Shown here in pieces: positions 1,584 to 19,056 of a stretch of 19,056 nucleotides of DNA. Below the pieces are notes generated by a model. The model was not told the origin of the DNA, did no database searches, and saw nothing but the letters and a program-made list of their open reading frames with translations. How positions within the stretch are numbered: position 1 is the stretch's first letter; each line of letters opens with the position of its first letter. Location: IMG/VR virus record IMGVR_UViG_2695420589_000003. The stretch is one strand, 5' to 3'. Position numbers and translations under genes: made by a program. The DNA comes from a virus (taxonomy: Duplodnaviria; Heunggongvirae; Uroviricota; Caudoviricetes).

Positions 1584-2187
1584 TGCGGGCCTCCTGTCGA
1601 ATCGCTGCCACCTTTAACGCCACCGTGCTTATGCGTATGCACTGTGATGCCGTTTGAGGTGAAATCGCCGCCGCTGTGCGTGATATTGCCGCTCATCGTT
1701 CCCCCTTTTGTGACGTCAAGCGTCGCTGTTCTCAGAAGGTCTGTGCATTCCACGACAGGCGTGTTCAGTGTCACGCTGATGGATGCCTGCAAAGTGGCCG
1801 TTTTCATGCCGCTTGCGCTCAGTGCGCCTGCGTCCGCGTCGTAGCGGAACACCGCGCCGTCCGGCGCGCTGACCACGATTTCTTTCAGGCTTTTGCCGGG
1901 TGCCGGAATGGCATCACTCCACAGGCTGCCGATTATCATGGCGGTTTCCGGGTTGCCGCCGATGCAGGCAATTGCCACCTGTTCGCCTGGTGATGGCGGA
2001 AACCACACGTTGNNNNNNNNNNNNNNNNNNNNNNNNNNNNNNNNNNNNNNNGCGTGGTGTTCCAGCGCAGCCAGCCTGTTTCCAGTTCGCCGCTGCGAAC
2101 GCGCACGCACCAGGATTCCTCATCAACTTCAGAGATGATCCCGGTGCGGATGATATTGCTCAGCAGTCGCATGAGTTCTGCGCTCAT
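1580..2187 (-). CDS. V: Baseplate spike/hub protein gpV; interrupted by masked run 2013-2051
   Basis: N-terminal part (MSAELMRLLSNIIRTGIISEVD..., ATG 2187, GGAGG RBS 7 nt upstream) and C-terminal part (...ITVHTHKHGGVKGGSDSTGGPQ) both resemble recalled P2 gpV; the two visible halves are in different frames across the mask. Confidence 0.8.
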
Positions 2188-2850: not shown

Positions 2851-3285
2851 NNNNNNNNNNNNNNNNNNNNNNNNNNNNNNNNNNNNNNNNNNNNNNNNNN
2901 NNNNNNNNNNNNNNNNNNNNNNNNNNNNNNNNNNNNNNNNNNNNNNNNNNNNNNNNNNNNNNNNNNNNNNNNNNNNNNNNNNNNNNNNNNNNNNNNNNNN
3001 NNNNNNNNNNNNNNNNNNNNNNNNNNNNNNNNNNNNNNNNNNNNNNNNNNNNNNNNNNNNNNNNNNNNNNNNNNNNNNNNNNNNNNNNNNNNNNNNNNNN
3101 NNNNNNNNNNNNNNNNNNNNNNNNNNNNNNNNNNNNNNNNNNNNNNNNNNNNNNNNNNNNNNNNNNNNNNNNNNNNNNNNNNNNNNNNNNNNNNNNNNNN
3201 NNNNNNNNNNNNNNNNNNNNNNNNNNNNNNNNNNNNNNNNNNNNNNNNNNNNNNNNNNNNNNNNNNNNNNNNNNNNNNNNNNNNN

Positions 3286-4544: not shown

Positions 4545-4562
4545 NNNNNNNNNNNNNNNNNN

Positions 4563-5312: not shown

Positions 5313-5811
5313 NNNNNNNNNNNNNNNNNNNNNNNNNNNNNNNNNNNNNNNNNNNNNNNNNNNNNNNNNNNNNNNNNNNNNNNNNNNNNNNNNNNNNNNN
5401 NNNNNNNNNNNNNNNNNNNNNNNNNNNNNNNNNNNNNNNNNNNNNNNNNNNNNNNNNNNNNNNNNNNNNNNNNNNNNNNNNNNNNNNNNNNNNNNNNNNN
5501 NNNNNNNNNNNNNNNNNNNNNNNNNNNNNNNNNNNNNNNNNNNNNNNNNNNNNNNNNNNNNNNNNNNNNNNNNNNNNNNNNNNNNNNNNNNNNNNNNNNN
5601 NNNNNNNNNNNNNNNNNNNNNNNNNNNNNNNNNNNNNNNNNNNNNNNNNNNNNNNNNNNNNNNNNNNNNNNNNNNNNNNNNNNNNNNNNNNNNNNNNNNN
5701 NNNNNNNNNNNNNNNNNNNNNNNNNNNNNNNNNNNNNNNNNNNNNNNNNNNNNNNNNNNNNNNNNNNNNNNNNNNNNGCGTCTTCTGGTGCGGCTGCGGA
5801 ATCGGCTTTTT

Positions 5812-6504
5812 TCAGGGCGCGGGAAAGGGNNNNNNNNNNNNNNNNNNNNNNNNNNNNGTTGCAATCTCGCGTTTCACACCTGCGTTCTGGTTCAGATGCA
5901 TCGCTTCGCGCAGCAGCTTCAGTGATGAGGCCATGCTGTCCGCATCGCTCAGGCCACGGCGGGCAAAGGCGCACGCCTTGCATAATTTGGCGCGCACTTC
6001 GTCCGGCATATCCTGGTTGGCGACAATTTCCCAAAGTGTGTCCAGTGGTTCGATAAAGACGGACAAATCCGCGTCGGCATCCGTCCCGGCCTGCGTCAGT
6101 ACCGGATTGCAGATTTCTTCGGTCAGCACTGTGGCAGCAGTACGGCCAAAGTTATCCGGCATGATGAGGTTGTGACGGACCGCATACGCACCAATACGCA
6201 GCGCAAGCGGAAGATCGCCGCAGTCAATCGCCCACACCATCAGCGTGGCAATCACTTCGTCCTGTTGCCCGCCGTCAGCCTCCAGCGTTCCCTCAATCCA
6301 GCCGGAAAAGTCCGGCAACAACGCTTTTTTGATGTCGGCTTTCGCGCTTCTGGCCTGTACGCCCTTAAGCCGGGCCTGTGCCAGACGCAGACGATACAGC
6401 ACCTCTTCATGCGCGGTACGCGCGGCGTGGTCCACACCTTCATTCGCCCGGCCTGCGCGCTGTGCCATCACGTTCTGCCAGTGTTGCTGTGCAGGAGTAA
6501 TCAT
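5812..6504 (-). CDS. M: Terminase small (endonuclease) subunit gpM; 3' end uncertain because it crosses mask 5830-5857
   Basis: ATG 6504 with GGAGAG RBS; the block MPDEVRAKL and overall profile resemble recalled P2 gpM; synteny N-M-L. Confidence 0.8.
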   Translation of the reverse strand: MITPAQQHWQNVMAQRAGRANEGVDHAARTAHEEVLYRLRLAQARLKGVQARSAKADIKKALLPDFSGWIEGTLEADGGQQDEVIATLMVWAIDCGDLPLALRIGAYAVRHNLIMPDNFGRTAATVLTEEICNPVLTQAGTDADADLSVFIEPLDTLWEIVANQDMPDEVRAKLCKACAFARRGLSDADSMASSLKLLREAMHLNQNAGVKREIAXXXXXXXXXXPFPAP

Positions 6505-8462: not shown

Positions 8463-8858
8463 AGTTTTTGCCCCTCTGACTGGTTCTTCAGTCATGATGG
8501 CAAAGCGTAACAGGCTGATACAAAGGGCTTTTGTTGTAAGAAAACGGCCAGAACAGGGGGNNNNNNNNNNNNNNNNNNNNNNNNNNNNNNNNNNNNNNNN
8601 NNNNNNNNNNNNNNNNNNNNNNNNNNNNNNNNNNNNNNNNNNNNNNNNNNNNNNNNNNNNNNNNNNNNNNNNNNNNNNNNNNNNNNNNNNNNNNNNNNNN
8701 NNNNNNNNNNNNNNNNNNNNNNNNNNNNNNNNNNNNNNNNNNNNNNNNNNNNNNNNNNNNNNNNNNNNNNNNNNNNNNNNNNNNNNNNNNNNNNNNNNNN
8801 NNNNNNNNNNNNNNNNNNNNNNNNNNNNNNNNNNNNNNNNNNNNNNNNNNNNNNNNNN

Positions 8859-13121: not shown

Positions 13122-13387
13122 NNNNNNNNNNNNNNNNNNNNNNNNNNNNNNNNNNNNNNNNNNNNNNNNNNNNNNNNNNNNNNNNNNNNNNNNNNNNNNN
13201 NNNNNNNNNNNNNNNNNNNNNNNNNNNNNNNNNNNNNNNNNNNNNNNNNNNNNNNNNNNNNNNNNNNNNNNNNNNNNNNNNNNNNNNNNNNNNNNNNNNN
13301 NNNNNNNNNNNNNNNNNNNNNNNNNNNNNNNNNNNNNNNNNNNNNNNNNNNNNNNNNNNNNNNNNNNNNNNNNNNNNNNNNNNNNNN

Positions 13388-14299
13388 CACCCCGTCCGCG
13401 ATGAAAGTCGCATTAACTCCGCAGGCTTCGCGGATAGCGGGTGCCACAATCTCCGCCCCTCCACCGACAACCATCACCCGCCCGTAACCCGAAAAACCCG
13501 CCAGCGCGCGGATCACGCGTTGTTTCAGTGTTTCTTCCTTTTCACGAATAACCGCCATCAGGCTGGCGTAATGCGCGTCATTGTGGATGTGCTGGCGCAG
13601 CCAGGCTTCATCATGGCGATGTTCGATAATGGTATTGGCGATGTGGTGACTGGTGCGCATACCGTTAGTGGCCATCACCGACAGTACGGCATCGGCCATC
13701 AGAGAAACGCCTACGTGTGGATCGCAAAACACCTGGCTGATACCTGCCAGTTGCCCCTGAACCTTTGCCACATCCAGCGTGGTTCCGCCCAAATCCACAA
13801 TCAGCAGGGATTCAAACGGACTCATGTCAGCCAGTGCCTTAAAGCCAGCCGGAATGGATTCAGGCATAACCCGCACGTTACGGATAGTGAATGCTTCGCC
13901 GTTCTGGTACTCCACCGGGCGCATAACGTTCGCTTTTTTGCGGTTGATGTTGGCCATGTCCGGCTGTGCGTTTGTGTCGAAATACTCGCTCAGTGGCAGG
14001 GTGACAACCACATCCACCTCCTGTGGCGTGATGCCTGATTTGACCAGCGCGTGATGAATGGCAATGACATTTACATCGCTGTACTGGTATTGCGTGTCGG
14101 TTGTCTGGACAAAGCGATCGCTGACCGGATCAAAACCATAGCGCACGCCATCAAGCATGTAGTTCGCGGGCTGCATGCCACCGAACGGCGCAGACCATTC
14201 CGACTTGAAGCTGTTCGGGCTGATGGCGTTGCGGCGTTCGCCGTTCTCAGTCCATGCCAGCTTGATGTTGGTGGAGCCGTCGTCGATACAAATTTTCAT
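13388..14299 (-). CDS. ParM/StbA-like actin-fold ATPase (304 codons visible; C-terminus masked)
   Basis: N-terminus MKICIDDGSTNIKLAW closely matches recalled R1 ParM; all three ASKHA nucleotide-binding motifs present: DDGSTNIK (14261-14284), LIVDLGGTTLD (about 13778-13795), VMVVGGGAE (13451-13477); AAGGA RBS before ATG 14299. Confidence 0.85.
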
Positions 14300-14330: not shown

Positions 14331-14442
14331 TTTACGGGATTCTGAAATCCCGTTTTTGCCTGTTTTGTGCGCGCTTCATATATCGCTGCGCGTTTTTTGC
14401 TCATTTACGGGATTCGTGAGTCCCGTTTCTGTCTGTTTTTTG
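14331..14442. repeat. Two copies, 73 bp apart, of a ~36-bp element TTTACGGGATTC-(loop)-TCCCGTTT-T-rich; each forms a hairpin followed by a T-run on the plus strand
   Basis: Copy 1 at 14331-14366 (hairpin 14335-14352) in the A/ParM spacer; copy 2 at 14404-14442 inside the last codons of A; loop differences are compensatory. Confidence 0.6.
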
Positions 14443-16785
14443 TTTCCACTGGTCAGGCCACCCCGCAGCAGGTCTGCTTTGCGGCGGGCGCGTTCAGTGG
14501 TTTCACTGATTCTCTGTGCGTGCTCTGCGTCGCGGATGGCGCGCAGCATGTCAGAAAGCACGGTAACGGGTGTTTTCATGGTGTTCTGGTCCTGCTGAAG
14601 TGTGGATGCCAGGCGTGCGGCGGCTTCAGGGTCTGATGCCCCCAGCTGTGTCAGATAGCTGGCGACCGGGTTATGGCGGATCTCCGTGCTGCTTACGCCA
14701 TGATTACGGCTCAGGCGCTGCCAGAGCTGCGTGATTCGGCTGTCCGGGCGGGTATCCGGTTTGCGTACAATTTCAAATCCCTGCGGTGCAATGATGCTGC
14801 CGTCAACGTACAGACTGCCGCCCCGTAACAGGTGCTGCATCTGTTGTTCACCGATATGCAGGCCGAGAGATTCAGCAGACTCCCGCCATTCTTTAGCGAG
14901 TAATTCGTGGTTATCAGGCAAAGGCCGCTGCTGTTTGCGGCTCTGTGTCCAGCTCTGCATTTCATCACTGCTGTTTTTTGCCTGTTTGTCACGAAGCGAA
15001 CGCATCAGCGCCCGGCGTTCGTGCCGTTTCAGTGAGCGCATCCATTCATCCACATCAACGCCGTCAGGGAGCTGCGGCCACGGTGCTGGCCGTTCTTCCG
15101 GCTGTTCTGTCCCGTTGTTGTCCGTTTCCTGTACACGGGGACAGTTATTGCCACGAGTCCAAGGGGCGGCAGGGCCGCCCTGAAGGTCAAAACCATTTTC
15201 GCGGGCGCTGTCTTCCGCTTCCGGTTTGCGTCTTACCAGCTTCCAGTTATCCGGATGCGTGCACACACGGGAGGATTCCCCGATGAGTGGTGACCAGATC
15301 CCGTAAATCTGTACGCTCTGTTCGCCGTAATCGTTCAGCTCATCGGCGAGGTCGTAGGCGGTGCGAATCAGGTAGTCTTTGCGTGGAACAAGTACGCCGC
15401 CCTGTTTCTCTATGTAGGTGGCAAAACATCCGGCATCAGCGGCGGCAAGAACCGCATCCATTGCGTCATCCTTCAGCCGTTGCGGGCCTTCCGGGTTGCG
15501 TGCCATCTGGCTGGCAAGGCGGCGCAGTTCACGCCATACCTGGCGGGAGGGGATGCCAAAGAACTGGAACTGGCGGACCCGGTGAAGGCGCGCCCAGCCG
15601 ATGGCGCGTTCCACGCTCTCGGCCATTGATTTTCCGGTTTCGTGGTCAACGCGTGGCTTGCCCGTTTTCGGGTCGATGCCATCCACGGCGCGGCTGTCCA
15701 GGTTTTTCCCGATGTAGGTGGCGATGTAGCTGGTTGGCGTGCCTTTTGAGCCGTCTACATACTCCGCCTTAAAGCGCGGAGTTATGTCATCGCCCAGCTC
15801 GTGACGATCTTCCTGAATGGCAATATCGCGGGTGTGGGACACAATGGTGTCGATTTCTTCCGGATGAGCAAAGACCATCATATGCCAGTGCACGGTGCCG
15901 TCATGGTGAGGCTCCGCCGTGCGGATGCCATACCAGCGCAGGCCGTCGCGGTTCAGTTTTTTGCGGACCGTCGCAAAAAACGTGTTAACCAGGTAATCGC
16001 TGGAGTCGCGCATTGTGGCCCCGTTCCATTTGGGATTCGGATGACCGTTCTCCGTTGTGGCGTGGTATTTTGACGGGCAGGTGACAGTCAGAAACACCGC
16101 TTTGTCGCCACGGGCTTCGGCCAGAAGTTCCAGCCCCTTCATGGTGGCCATCATTTCTGCCTTACGGTGAACCGGGTTACTTACTCCCGCGTAATACACC
16201 GTCTCGAGATCAATCGTGAACCCGTCTTCATTTTCCAGCATGAAACTTTTCAGGAAATCGCGTGTTTTCTCGCGCTGTGCGCGAAACTCGCTTAACGCGT
16301 CCTGGCTCAGATAGGGCGATGTTTTTCTGGAAACCAGACAGGCGGCGCGAAGTTGTTCTTCTCTCCACTCGCAACGTAACAGCCACAGTTTGCGTTTCCA
16401 CCATTCCGCACAGGTCAGGCGAAGGATTGCGCCCGGCAGCAGTTCTGTGTCCGGTTCGTGCCTCCGGTCTTTGTCTGTTGTCAGTGCGTCATAATGCGGA
16501 GGCATGGCGTGTAAGTGTAACGCCATGCGGGCCAGCATCTGATACGCCTTCAGCGTTACATCCATGGTCAGCTCGCCATCAGTCGCGCCAAAACCATCGC
16601 AGAGTTTTTCGAAGGTGCTGCTGAACATCGCCGCCGTCATGGTGGCCAGCGTCTGTATCTGGTGTTTGTTGAGTTGCGGCAGGTAAAGCAAATCGTCCAG
16701 GCGTTCACGTCCGGCAAGGGAGCGATAACCCGGTGTCAGCCAGTGTCCGTCAGTGCGATCCAGACGTTCGAATATTTTGCGCAGG
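14376..16785 (-). CDS. A: Rolling-circle replication initiator gpA (HUH endonuclease); 5' end in mask 16786-17312
   Basis: Contains EPHHDGTVHWHMMVF (HUH motif) and YIATYIGKNLD (paired catalytic Tyr), matching recalled P2 gpA; about 803 codons visible. Confidence 0.9.
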
Positions 16786-17391
16786 NNNNNNNNNNNNNNN
16801 NNNNNNNNNNNNNNNNNNNNNNNNNNNNNNNNNNNNNNNNNNNNNNNNNNNNNNNNNNNNNNNNNNNNNNNNNNNNNNNNNNNNNNNNNNNNNNNNNNNN
16901 NNNNNNNNNNNNNNNNNNNNNNNNNNNNNNNNNNNNNNNNNNNNNNNNNNNNNNNNNNNNNNNNNNNNNNNNNNNNNNNNNNNNNNNNNNNNNNNNNNNN
17001 NNNNNNNNNNNNNNNNNNNNNNNNNNNNNNNNNNNNNNNNNNNNNNNNNNNNNNNNNNNNNNNNNNNNNNNNNNNNNNNNNNNNNNNNNNNNNNNNNNNN
17101 NNNNNNNNNNNNNNNNNNNNNNNNNNNNNNNNNNNNNNNNNNNNNNNNNNNNNNNNNNNNNNNNNNNNNNNNNNNNNNNNNNNNNNNNNNNNNNNNNNNN
17201 NNNNNNNNNNNNNNNNNNNNNNNNNNNNNNNNNNNNNNNNNNNNNNNNNNNNNNNNNNNNNNNNNNNNNNNNNNNNNNNNNNNNNNNNNNNNNNNNNNNN
17301 NNNNNNNNNNNNCGGGGATCCCCGTTCCTTCACGCCCCACTGCGTGGCGCGGTTGTTGCCAGTCCCTGATGTACTCTGCCGTCATAGTGAT

Positions 17392-17757
17392 TTACTTCGT
17401 CATGCCATTCAGGGTGTCGCGGCAGACTGTAGCCAGCCGCTGAATTTCCAGCACGGTGTCTTCTGTGTCGGCATGGCGATGTGTGATGCGGATGCTGTCG
17501 GCAATCACATCGACGATTGCAGAGGATGGGCGCTGGTAAATGCCAATAACGGACGGGGTGCCACCTTCAATGCGGTAAAGCCTGTAATTTCCCTCGTGGC
17601 TGTCAATCATGTAGCGACCATCAATAACAATCTTTCCGTCAGCGAGCTGCGGTACAGGCAGGGATTTCAGGTACATGTCATAACGATCACGCACGCGAGC
17701 GGCAAGATCACGCTCTGTGTTGAGCAGGTATTCAAGAAAGTCGTTGGCGAGAATCAT
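17392..17757 (-). CDS. Hypothetical early-operon protein (121 aa)
   Basis: ATG 17757 with AGGA about 9 nt upstream; same orientation as A and immediately upstream of it; no motif recognised. Confidence 0.5.
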   Translation of the reverse strand: MILANDFLEYLLNTERDLAARVRDRYDMYLKSLPVPQLADGKIVIDGRYMIDSHEGNYRLYRIEGGTPSVIGIYQRPSSAIVDVIADSIRITHRHADTEDTVLEIQRLATVCRDTLNGMTK

Positions 17758-17898
17758 TGCGGCAATCCTCTTGTTACAGATGTGCGAAGGCCTCCCGCCG
17801 CAAGGTGCAGGAAAGGCCCGGAACAGGAATTAATGGAGTTTGTTTTGCTGCCGGATGAGCTGCTGAAGCCCGACGTGGTTTCCGGCAGTTGGAGGTGC

Positions 17899-18144
17899 TC
17901 ATGCTCTGATTTCCCTCAGTAGCTGGTTGAACATCTGGGTTAGTGGGTTGCTACACCCAAACGGCATCAGGTTTACCTGATAAGAAAAGCGACCGCCTGT
18001 TTTGCGCTCTTTTCTTGTGACTAAACCGCTGCGCCAGAGACGGCGTAGCTCCGCATTAATGGTTGTGGTTGGTGTATTCAGTGCTGCGGCGATTTCTCCA
18101 CTGCTACAACCCGGATTGGCAGCGATGTAGTCCAGAATGGTCAT
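17899..18144 (-). CDS. Small winged-helix DNA-binding protein, PapI/FaeA-like (81 aa)
   Basis: ILDYIAANPGCSSGEIAAALNTPTTTINAELRRLWRSGLV follows the PapI pattern as recalled; ATG overlaps the upstream ORF stop as ATGA. Confidence 0.6.
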   Translation of the reverse strand: MTILDYIAANPGCSSGEIAAALNTPTTTINAELRRLWRSGLVTRKERKTGGRFSYQVNLMPFGCSNPLTQMFNQLLREIRA

Positions 18145-18344
18145 CTGCGTGACTCCTGTACCTGTCTGATAAGATTCACCTGCACCACGTTGGTGGCGCA
18201 GAAGTAAGTGCCGTCAGTGAGATAGATATGATGTGCATCCTTTTCTGAACGGTGTTTGTCGATTGTGGTAATCAGGCGTTCGTCAACTTCGTATTCACGT
18301 CCTCTGGAGGTGAAACGAACGACAGGAAAATGCTTAATTGCCAT
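18141..18344 (-). CDS. Hypothetical early protein (67 aa from ATG 18344)
   Basis: Strong AAGGAGG 4 nt upstream of ATG 18344; the track's longer GTG start at 18395 lacks an RBS. Confidence 0.5.
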   Translation of the reverse strand: MAIKHFPVVRFTSRGREYEVDERLITTIDKHRSEKDAHHIYLTDGTYFCATNVVQVNLIRQVQESRR

Positions 18345-18430
18345 TACGCCTCCTTGGCGTGTGCGAATACCTCCGCGAATGCGGATTGTTTTCACATTTT
18401 CTTATTTAACCTAGGGTCTTATTTGCGCGG

Positions 18431-18544
18431 TTATTCTTCAGTGAAAAAGCGTTCAATCTTTTTTACTGAATTAATAATTCGCATAATCCCAATGGCGCAG
18501 ACCACCGAAATAATCAGAACAAGCCATGAAATAAATATACTCAT
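18431..18544 (-). CDS. Unlisted 37-aa small membrane peptide (MSIFISWLVLIISVVCAIGIMRIINSVKKIERFFTEE)
   Basis: Translated by hand from the minus strand; ATG 18544 overlaps the stop of the upstream 80-aa ORF (ATGA), GGGAAA 7 nt upstream; one hydrophobic helix plus a charged tail. Below the size cutoff of the ORF track. Confidence 0.4.
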   Translation of the reverse strand: MSIFISWLVLIISVVCAIGIMRIINSVKKIERFFTEE

Positions 18545-18783
18545 GCGATATTTCCCAGCTTATACGGTTCAATATGTTCCCCGCATTCTGCGGCACAGAT
18601 CAGCTCGGAAAGTTCGTTAAGTGCATCCAGATCATCAGCGTAAAAAGCCACGTCATACAGACTTCGGATTGCTCTGGTCAATGAGTCACGGGCCGCACGT
18701 TCAGCATGAGCGCCTGATGCACTTAAGCGAAAATAAAAACGCTCAAGTGCTTTGTTAATGAGAGTTTTATATTCTTTGCCCAT
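18541..18783 (-). CDS. Hypothetical early protein (80 aa)
   Basis: ATG 18783 (second codon of track ORF 18541..18786); acidic, helical-looking; no motif recognised. Confidence 0.45.
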   Translation of the reverse strand: MGKEYKTLINKALERFYFRLSASGAHAERAARDSLTRAIRSLYDVAFYADDLDALNELSELICAAECGEHIEPYKLGNIA

Positions 18784-18794
18784 CACAACGCCCT

Positions 18795-18995
18795 TTAATC
18801 TGCTTTCTGTATTTCAGCTTCTGAATCCATACAAATAATTTCGATATAGGGTTCATCGCCATTAACCTGGCGTGCCTTTTCATCTTCGCTGATGATTTCT
18901 CGTACGGTCTGGTACGGAAGTTCCACAAGCAGTCGCGTGCCGTTCAGATAAACGTAAGTGGCTTCGTCGGCTCCGTTTTTACCCGCCGGAGTCAC
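18795..18995 (-). CDS. Possible small ORF (66 aa, GTG start)
   Basis: Track ORF only; GTG start without a convincing RBS. Confidence 0.25.
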   Translation of the reverse strand: MTPAGKNGADEATYVYLNGTRLLVELPYQTVREIISEDEKARQVNGDEPYIEIICMDSEAEIQKAD

Positions 18996-19056
18996 TCCGT
19001 CAATAGCGGATGCACGTAATAACAGTTAGACTGGCCCCCTGAATCTCCAGACAACC

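Follow-up and report, generated by a model that had tools for sequence, protein, structure and literature searches.

The stretch of DNA analysed here, hereafter the window, comprises 19,056 nucleotides (nt) of IMG/VR virus record IMGVR_UViG_2695420589_000003 and belongs to a P88-type prophage (genus Xuanwuvirus, Peduoviridae, P2-like). On the minus strand of its early region, at positions 17899 to 18144, lies a gene for a winged-helix protein of 81 amino acids (aa) which had originally been predicted to be PapI/FaeA-like. Profile comparisons instead assign the gene to a so far unnamed family of early proteins from temperate phages (PHROG 19053/1687). Judged from the alignments, the true signature of this family is not the DNA-binding domain but a better conserved motif at the C-terminus, and this motif is undescribed. 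Via the motif the family can be linked to the Ren proteins of lambdoid phages. Based on this link there is about an even chance, in our estimate, that the protein is a Ren-related early accessory protein which would aid early development or replication of the phage against resident exclusion systems.

The open reading frame (ORF) starts with ATG, encodes the product MTILDYIAANPGCSSGEIAAALNTPTTTINAELRRLWRSGLVTRKERKTGGRFSYQVNLMPFGCSNPLTQMFNQLLREIRA and coincides exactly with the coordinates of the original prediction. A Shine-Dalgarno sequence AGGAG (18153..18157, minus strand), identified by direct reading of the sequence, is located 8 nt 5’ of the ATG and thus within the end of the upstream gene, which codes for 67 aa. 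The ATG of the 81-aa gene and the TGA of the 67-aa gene overlap as ATGA. Due to this stop/start overlap both genes are probably translationally coupled. The ratio of nonsynonymous to synonymous substitution rates (dN/dS) ranges from 0.08 to 0.38 in diverged pairs of copies from P88-like phages and E. coli prophages, whereby the differences are mainly synonymous. This indicates a real gene under purifying selection, in line with the ribosome binding site and the ATGA overlap. Equivalents of the gene are gp09 of P88 and ORF42 of phiSM. It is annotated already in thousands of records, and the public names (RefSeq) are ‘MarR family transcriptional regulator’ or ‘winged helix-turn-helix domain-containing protein’. 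ORF42 of phiSM bears the same regulator label and was named as a putative fitness gene, without experiments (PMC6456863). Experimental work on the 81-aa protein was not found in the literature.

The fold was evaluated using Pfam models and AlphaFold2. Residues 2-52 match MarR_2 with 35.8 bits (cut-off 27) and HTH_24 with 34.1 bits (cut-off 21.9); MarR (PF01047) is reached with 23.8 bits, just under its cut-off of 24.6. AlphaFold2 was run twice, with 15 and with 24 aligned sequences. Both runs gave the identical topology at a mean predicted local distance difference test score (pLDDT) of 83-84. It consists of three helices (residues 3-9, 15-22 and 26-38), a beta-hairpin wing (42-46/53-57), a less confident linker and a further helix (67-80). 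The winged helix-turn-helix domain with its three helices and the beta-hairpin wing covers residues 1-57 (17974..18144, minus strand). According to the models the fold is a minimal winged helix followed by one C-terminal helix. The recognition helix (26-38) and the wing are both basic, as is the whole protein with an isoelectric point of 10.0, a net charge of +5 and 10 K+R versus 5 D+E. The small stand-alone winged helix that had been proposed for this gene is hence borne out by the Pfam matches and by the models. In a comparison of structures, PefI is outranked by MarR, ArsR and Zalpha folds, whereby the MarR structures align over only ~60 residues. Matches in a viral structure library were restricted to uncharacterised phage proteins.

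The family was delimited by a profile search of 1.84 billion representative proteins, which yielded ~35 full-length relatives with a common motif. The protein itself matches PHROG 19053 (3.7e-41) and PHROG 1687 (1.5e-30) and carries the motif. The motif occupies residues 61-80 (PFGCSNPLTQMFNQLLREIR; 17905..17964, minus strand) and follows the family consensus PFGCxNPLTxMFNxLLxExR. It is predicted to form a turn and then an amphipathic helix (67-80), in which L68, M71, F72, L75, L76 and I79 would lie on one face when the sequence is read along the helix. With 24 relatives aligned, the mean frequency of the commonest residue amounts to 0.71 in the C-terminal segment, to 0.41 in the winged helix-turn-helix domain and to only 0.34 in the recognition helix. 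A search with the motif retrieved no match from the PDB at E≤10, nor did any Pfam or NCBIfam model match it.

Larger members of the family have 150-160 aa and two winged helices, and one of 222 aa has up to three winged-helix-like segments. In these multi-domain relatives the motif is present solely at the very end of the protein. One- and two-domain proteins that end with the motif, and the form of 222 aa, are found in early operons of lambdoid as well as P2-like phages (loci L014, L016 and L017). No Pfam model matched a distant member of the family (P0062). Across nine genomic contexts we found no constant gene neighbour which would hint at a partner. A second distant member of 86 aa (P0118) occurs on 23 contigs (loci L018/L019, 4001-4261) in surroundings that do not resemble a phage, with an Omp85/POTRA gene on one side and GGDEF/histidine-kinase genes on the other. 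It may represent a domesticated or stranded copy.

The link to Ren emerges from three kinds of comparison. A tblastn search with the motif alone retrieved the known homologues and, weakly (E 0.5, 60% over 20 aa), lambdoid genes annotated as ‘Ren-like exclusion protein’. One of these proteins, gp48 of phage mEpX1 (YP_007111685), ends with WGCANPMTAFINRALMEVRQ. It aligns to the family over its full length (hhalign 98.4%, E 8e-15, 83 columns including the motif; 47.8 bits with the family hidden Markov model, HMM) and, at the same time, to lambda Ren with 43% identity over 58 aa of the winged helix (E 3e-15). The direct alignment of the family with lambda Ren gave 90.2% in hhalign (E 1.5e-6, 84 columns). 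The second comparison concerns PHROG 1687, in which lambda Ren covers positions 1-65 (1.5e-10) and the 81-aa protein positions 69-149. Two two-domain relatives (P0087 and P0104) span all of PHROG 1687, and their first domain matches the Ren family PHROG 142 at ~3e-11. Moreover a homologue from an Stx phage, which is 45% identical to the 81-aa protein, matches PHROG 142 with E 1.1e-4. The third comparison is positional. In mEpX1 and in loci L016 and L017, members of the family follow directly after O and a helicase/loader gene with overlapping stop and start codons. Thus family members (P0106, P0104) occupy the very position of ren. In a further locus (L010) a member is located one gene beyond this slot.

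Proteins of the mEpX1 gp48 type, which are also encoded by phages N7, Louie and CurroJimenez, resemble the 81-aa protein by a single winged helix and the same C-terminal motif. Both match PHROG 1687 and PHROG 19053, and both are encoded by small early-operon genes overlapping the preceding gene. They differ in that mEpX1 gp48 is located after O and a DnaC-like loader, whereas the window gene precedes a gene A of P2 type and is probably coupled to the 67-aa ORF. Their identity is only ~28%. Furthermore the winged helix of mEpX1 gp48 is of the lambda Ren subtype, and that of the 81-aa protein represents the second subtype (PHROG 1687 positions 69-149). Lambda Ren shares with the family the small size (96 aa), the early expression, a predicted winged helix and a degenerate remnant of the C-terminal helix. 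It is accessory, non-essential and tied to the replication module. Its phenotype, namely growth on Rex+ lysogens and two-hybrid contacts with RexA and RexB, is known for lambda Ren alone.

Several observations weigh against a function related to Ren. Lambda Ren (NP_040633; PHROG 142) has kept only an N...E.R remnant of the motif and lacks PFGCxNPLT. The 81-aa protein matches PHROG 142 only weakly (E 0.022, 15.8 bits), and the family HMM gives 22.7 bits for lambda Ren and 25.0 bits for PapI, so the winged helix of the 81-aa protein is no closer to Ren than to PapI. Since these direct scores are weak, the link is a transitive one via the motif, the mEpX1-type proteins and the two-domain proteins. 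The window gene is located upstream of gene A, past an ash remnant and a 121-aa gene, and therefore not in a strict ren slot. The link to replication is not universal, since other members of the family belong to PL operons of lambdoid phages, follow bet/recT or lie outside phages altogether. Finally, Ren itself is understood in genetic and not in mechanistic terms, so ‘works like Ren’ would say little about mechanism.

For lambda the literature provides the genetic background. Translation of ren, which overlaps P, occurs together with that of O and P (bioRxiv 10.1101/2021.04.19.439022 supplement; PMC3224144). Heteroimmune lambda without ren shows poor growth on Rex+ lysogens, and suppressors are found in O and P (bioRxiv 10.1101/2021.04.19.439022; PMC3224144). 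Two-hybrid contacts are described for RexB-Ren and RexA-Ren (bioRxiv 10.1101/2021.04.19.439022 supplement; PMC3224144). For the P88-type phages the following course of events is the most likely one. The gene would be transcribed when the early operon is derepressed upon infection or induction, and it would stay silent in the lysogen. Its translation would probably be coupled to the upstream 67-aa gene; the winged-helix gene is located two genes ahead of replication gene A. The winged helix would contact nucleic acid, and the conserved C-terminal helix would either contact a conserved partner or mediate dimerisation. By analogy with lambda Ren, the protein would be accessory and support early phage development or replication against resident exclusion systems, as Ren does against RexAB. 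In a bolder version the C-terminal helix would be a docking peptide for one conserved partner encoded by host or prophage. The whole family, from lambda Ren to the P88-like protein, would then constitute a widespread class of anti-exclusion (anti-abortive-infection) or replication-protection factors common to P2-like and lambdoid phages, and the variable winged helix would tether these factors to nucleic acid. We regard this version as unlikely.

The similarity to PapI deserves a separate account, as it was the starting point. BLASTP aligns the 81-aa protein with PapI at 31% identity over 42 aa across the helix-turn-helix, and hhalign relates the query family to a PapI-family alignment with 95.6% (E 1.2e-8, 54 columns). 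Both proteins share the size class of ~70-80 aa and the single winged-helix domain, as do the other PapI/FaeA/PefI proteins (PF04703; 2HTJ, 2JT1). Nevertheless the resemblance reflects a shared compact winged helix and not membership. In a search of the PDB with the family profile PapI (2HTJ) is found at E 2.5e-4 (24.6 bits), but the Zalpha domains of fish PKZ score better (E 3e-6) and IclR about equally. PapI (2HTJ) served as positive control for the Pfam model FaeA (PF04703) and reached 110.1 bits at a gathering score of 20.7 bits. Among the best 25 of 26 Pfam matches of the 81-aa protein (E≤1) FaeA is absent. MarR_2 and HTH_24 are matched by all of 15 close homologues, FaeA by only three of them, and these three stay under its threshold (best E 0.014). 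In a collection of 5.8 billion proteins, precomputed matches to PF04703 exist for 71 of 71 PapI homologues and for none of ~130 homologues of the 81-aa protein. When the hhalign register is used with an alignment of close PapI/Sfa relatives only, the 81-aa protein retains 2 of 11 invariant and 7 of 17 near-invariant residues of the PapI family. The recognition-helix signature TDYQARYYLLLLEK is lost and the aligned segment reads PTTTINAELRRLWR. PapI in turn lacks the additional conserved C-terminal helix and the motif.

The genomic context differs as well. Genes of papI type are located divergently from papB at fimbrial operons and act together with Lrp at GATC sites (PMC12388093). The window gene is part of a phage early operon, and neither a papB-like gene nor a fimbrial operon adjoins it. 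Taken together, the Pfam test with its positive control, the residue signatures, the structure ranking and the genomic context reject PapI/FaeA membership. What stands of the original prediction is a remote, generic likeness. The profile search it had proposed as a check left the protein under the threshold, and it had named an unrelated helix-turn-helix family with an established phage role as the outcome speaking against it. This applies in part: the better matching relatives are phage Ren-like proteins, but their role is known genetically and not mechanistically. It is accordingly highly improbable that the protein is a co-regulator binding Lrp at Dam/GATC fimbrial switches, through which the prophage would cross-regulate fimbrial phase variation. 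Such cross-regulation during lysogeny is also unlikely in view of the position of the gene: it lies in a repressor-controlled early operon and no promoter-like site above chance was found, hence expression in the lysogen is not expected. A fimbrial cross-regulator on a phage would have been of interest, but this reading fails.

The main competitor of a Ren-related function is a plain sequence-specific transcription factor, i.e. a miniature dimer of MarR/ArsR type that would act at phage or host promoters in the early lytic phase and whose C-terminal helix would be a dimer interface only. The MarR_2 and HTH_24 matches above the cut-offs and the basic character of the protein agree with it. Moreover the recognition helix varies across the family as differing DNA specificities would predict, and all public annotation, including PMC6456863, says regulator. 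Repressors of the MarR and ArsR/SmtB families (3BJ6, MepR, SlyA, CzrA) and the centromere-binding protein AspA are among the closest known systems, in view of the MarR_2 match and of the single helix after the wing, which is found in ArsR and AspA, too. A protein of this size can act alone, as the example of T7 Gp5.7 indicates: it is described as a stand-alone winged-helix-like protein of 7 kDa (PMC5569994) which is made during infection and acts on promoters dependent on host RNA polymerase. This is an analogy of possible action and not a relationship, T7 being a virulent phage and Gp5.7 belonging to a different family. On the other side, MarR proteins proper have ~140-150 aa and flanking helices, about double the size of the 81-aa protein, which is without the N-terminal and C-terminal dimerisation helices of MarR and without its ligand pocket; the models exhibit only one helix after the wing. 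The most conserved surface is the C-terminal motif and not the helix that reads DNA. In addition the gene moves among unrelated phage circuits with neither a constant neighbour nor a nearby repeated operator. We consider a plain regulator the less likely reading.

Still other functions of a small winged helix were considered. Many excisionases are small winged-helix proteins, P2 Cox being an example (PMC3936717), and in P2-like phages the window gene shares its operon with Cox. A phage excisionase had also been suggested for the 81-aa protein, along with a comparison to P2 Cox and 186 Apl; such a protein would be a recombination directionality factor or an excisionase-repressor of Cox/Apl type built on a winged helix. 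BLASTP against P2 Cox returned no alignment, and the P88-like relatives possess a separate Cox or Cox-position gene, the first of the operon, adjoining C and int. On these grounds the excisionase was rejected. Lambdoid phages with a family member likewise encode an Xis themselves, and family members are often distant from int, in the nin/ren region, so we hold this function for hardly credible. The best solved-structure matches of the family profile, the PKZ Zalpha domains ahead of PapI, raise the question of a binder of left-handed (Z-form) nucleic acid. Zalpha domains are defined by a triad of Asn and Tyr in the recognition helix and Trp in the wing (N173, Y177 and W195 in ADAR1). Of this triad only the Asn is kept (N30), the essential Tyr and the Trp being replaced by R34 and Y55, and the family does not conserve the respective columns. 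Pfam's z-alpha model is absent from the matches listed for the protein. Judged by the key residues a Zalpha domain is ruled out in practice, and the resemblance seems to be one of fold. A defence-system protein was likewise dismissed, the PADLOC matches being confined to the generic winged-helix tails of models for CARF/CasR/Csa3.

The surroundings of the gene confirm its assignment to a phage early operon as originally proposed. The 1.7 kb around it share 96.5% identity with Xuanwuvirus P88_4B11 and 92-94% with P88 as well as Citrobacter phage phiSM. Elsewhere in the window P2-type genes for baseplate, tail completion, lysozyme, small terminase, capsid, scaffold and portal are found. The early region is matched in 1435 of 5426 complete E. 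coli genomes. In a relative, the E. coli O26 strain RM8426, the operon is intact and the winged-helix gene is identical to that of the window. There a divergent C-type repressor is followed by a 92-aa gene at the Cox position, DUF4761, a 95-aa gene, DUF4754, a 37-aa gene, the 67-aa gene, the winged-helix gene, the ash remnant, the 121-aa gene, the replication endonuclease and ParM. The order is similar in other P88-like relatives.

Within the window the respective genes are all on the minus strand. The 67-aa early gene (PHROG 3459) is located at 18141..18344; its mechanically predicted ORF reaches a GTG at 18395, and in relatives it measures 204 nt. Further upstream are a predicted membrane peptide of 37 aa (18431-18544), between the 67-aa gene and the DUF4754 protein gene (18541-18786), and a 5’-truncated early gene (18795..18995) of which 66 aa are left, compared with 95 aa in intact relatives. 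The hydrophobic 37-aa ORF is conserved, is called ‘membrane protein’ in P88 and overlaps with its start the end of the DUF4754 gene. Downstream, a pseudogene remnant of the ‘ash family’ (17758..17898) separates the winged-helix gene from the 121-aa early gene (17392..17757). Other P88-like phages carry different cargo in the slot of the ash remnant, namely an Ead/Ea22-like gene, a regulator of 205 aa, a derepression protein or a lipoprotein of serine-protease type, so the slot has the appearance of a variable insertion point. The stop codon of the winged-helix gene is overlapped by a 42-aa ORF (17774-17902). A frameshift fusion into this ORF is represented by one protein in the database (P0058). 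The 121-aa gene is located directly 5’ of gene A; it matches PHROG 3237 and shows a weak likeness to DUF5405 (P2 Orf83 family).

The replication endonuclease of P2 gene A type extends over 14376..17333 and comprises 2823 nt in relatives. Its true start is uncertain, since the 5’ part is masked by N (16786-17312). This is one of nine N runs in the window (2013-2051, 2209-2779, 2851-3285, 4545-4562, 5313-5777, 5830-5857, 8561-8858, 13122-13387 and 16786-17312). Part of ParM is masked as well. Due to the masking, mechanically predicted ORFs at these runs are artificially long with unreadable starts and stops. The gene for this plasmid-type ParM segregation ATPase (~13340-14299, minus strand) is located just 3’ of gene A. 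Its conservation extends over the P88-like phages, and in relatives it is followed by a small ‘partition/stability’ gene. For a P2-like phage that integrates, a ParM gene is unusual.

At the right edge of the window (~19028-19056) the terminal ~29 bp of an IS3-family (IS2-like) insertion element are present. The insertion cuts the 95-aa gene. It also isolates the early genes downstream of it from the early promoter as well as from Cox, C and int. In strain ETEC1703 an IS3-family element together with IS100 is located at a similar position. Since the operon is separated from its promoter region, the winged-helix gene may not normally be expressed at all in this particular prophage. A search of 17300-19056 for promoters, terminators and operator repeats gave nothing above chance, and neither non-coding RNA nor tRNA was found in the window.

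The fold described here is ordinary and the gene is very common in prophages, as it is present in about a quarter of the complete E. coli genomes. The automatic label ‘MarR family regulator’ is probably misleading and hides the relationship to Ren-type proteins. Besides this hidden relationship, what is mildly new is the motif that defines the family, as well as the presence of such a gene in P2-like phages, whose replication depends on a rolling-circle initiator and not on an O/P module. If the link to Ren is not functional, the protein would be an ordinary small winged-helix protein of phages. If it is functional, P88 and phiSM, both inducible and plaque-forming, would offer simple genetic systems for Ren-type proteins, and the motif a precise target for mutagenesis and for the hunt for partners. 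Should the C-terminal helix indeed turn out to be a docking peptide, mutagenesis of a defined motif and a search for its partner would become feasible for the 45-year-old ren/Rex puzzle.

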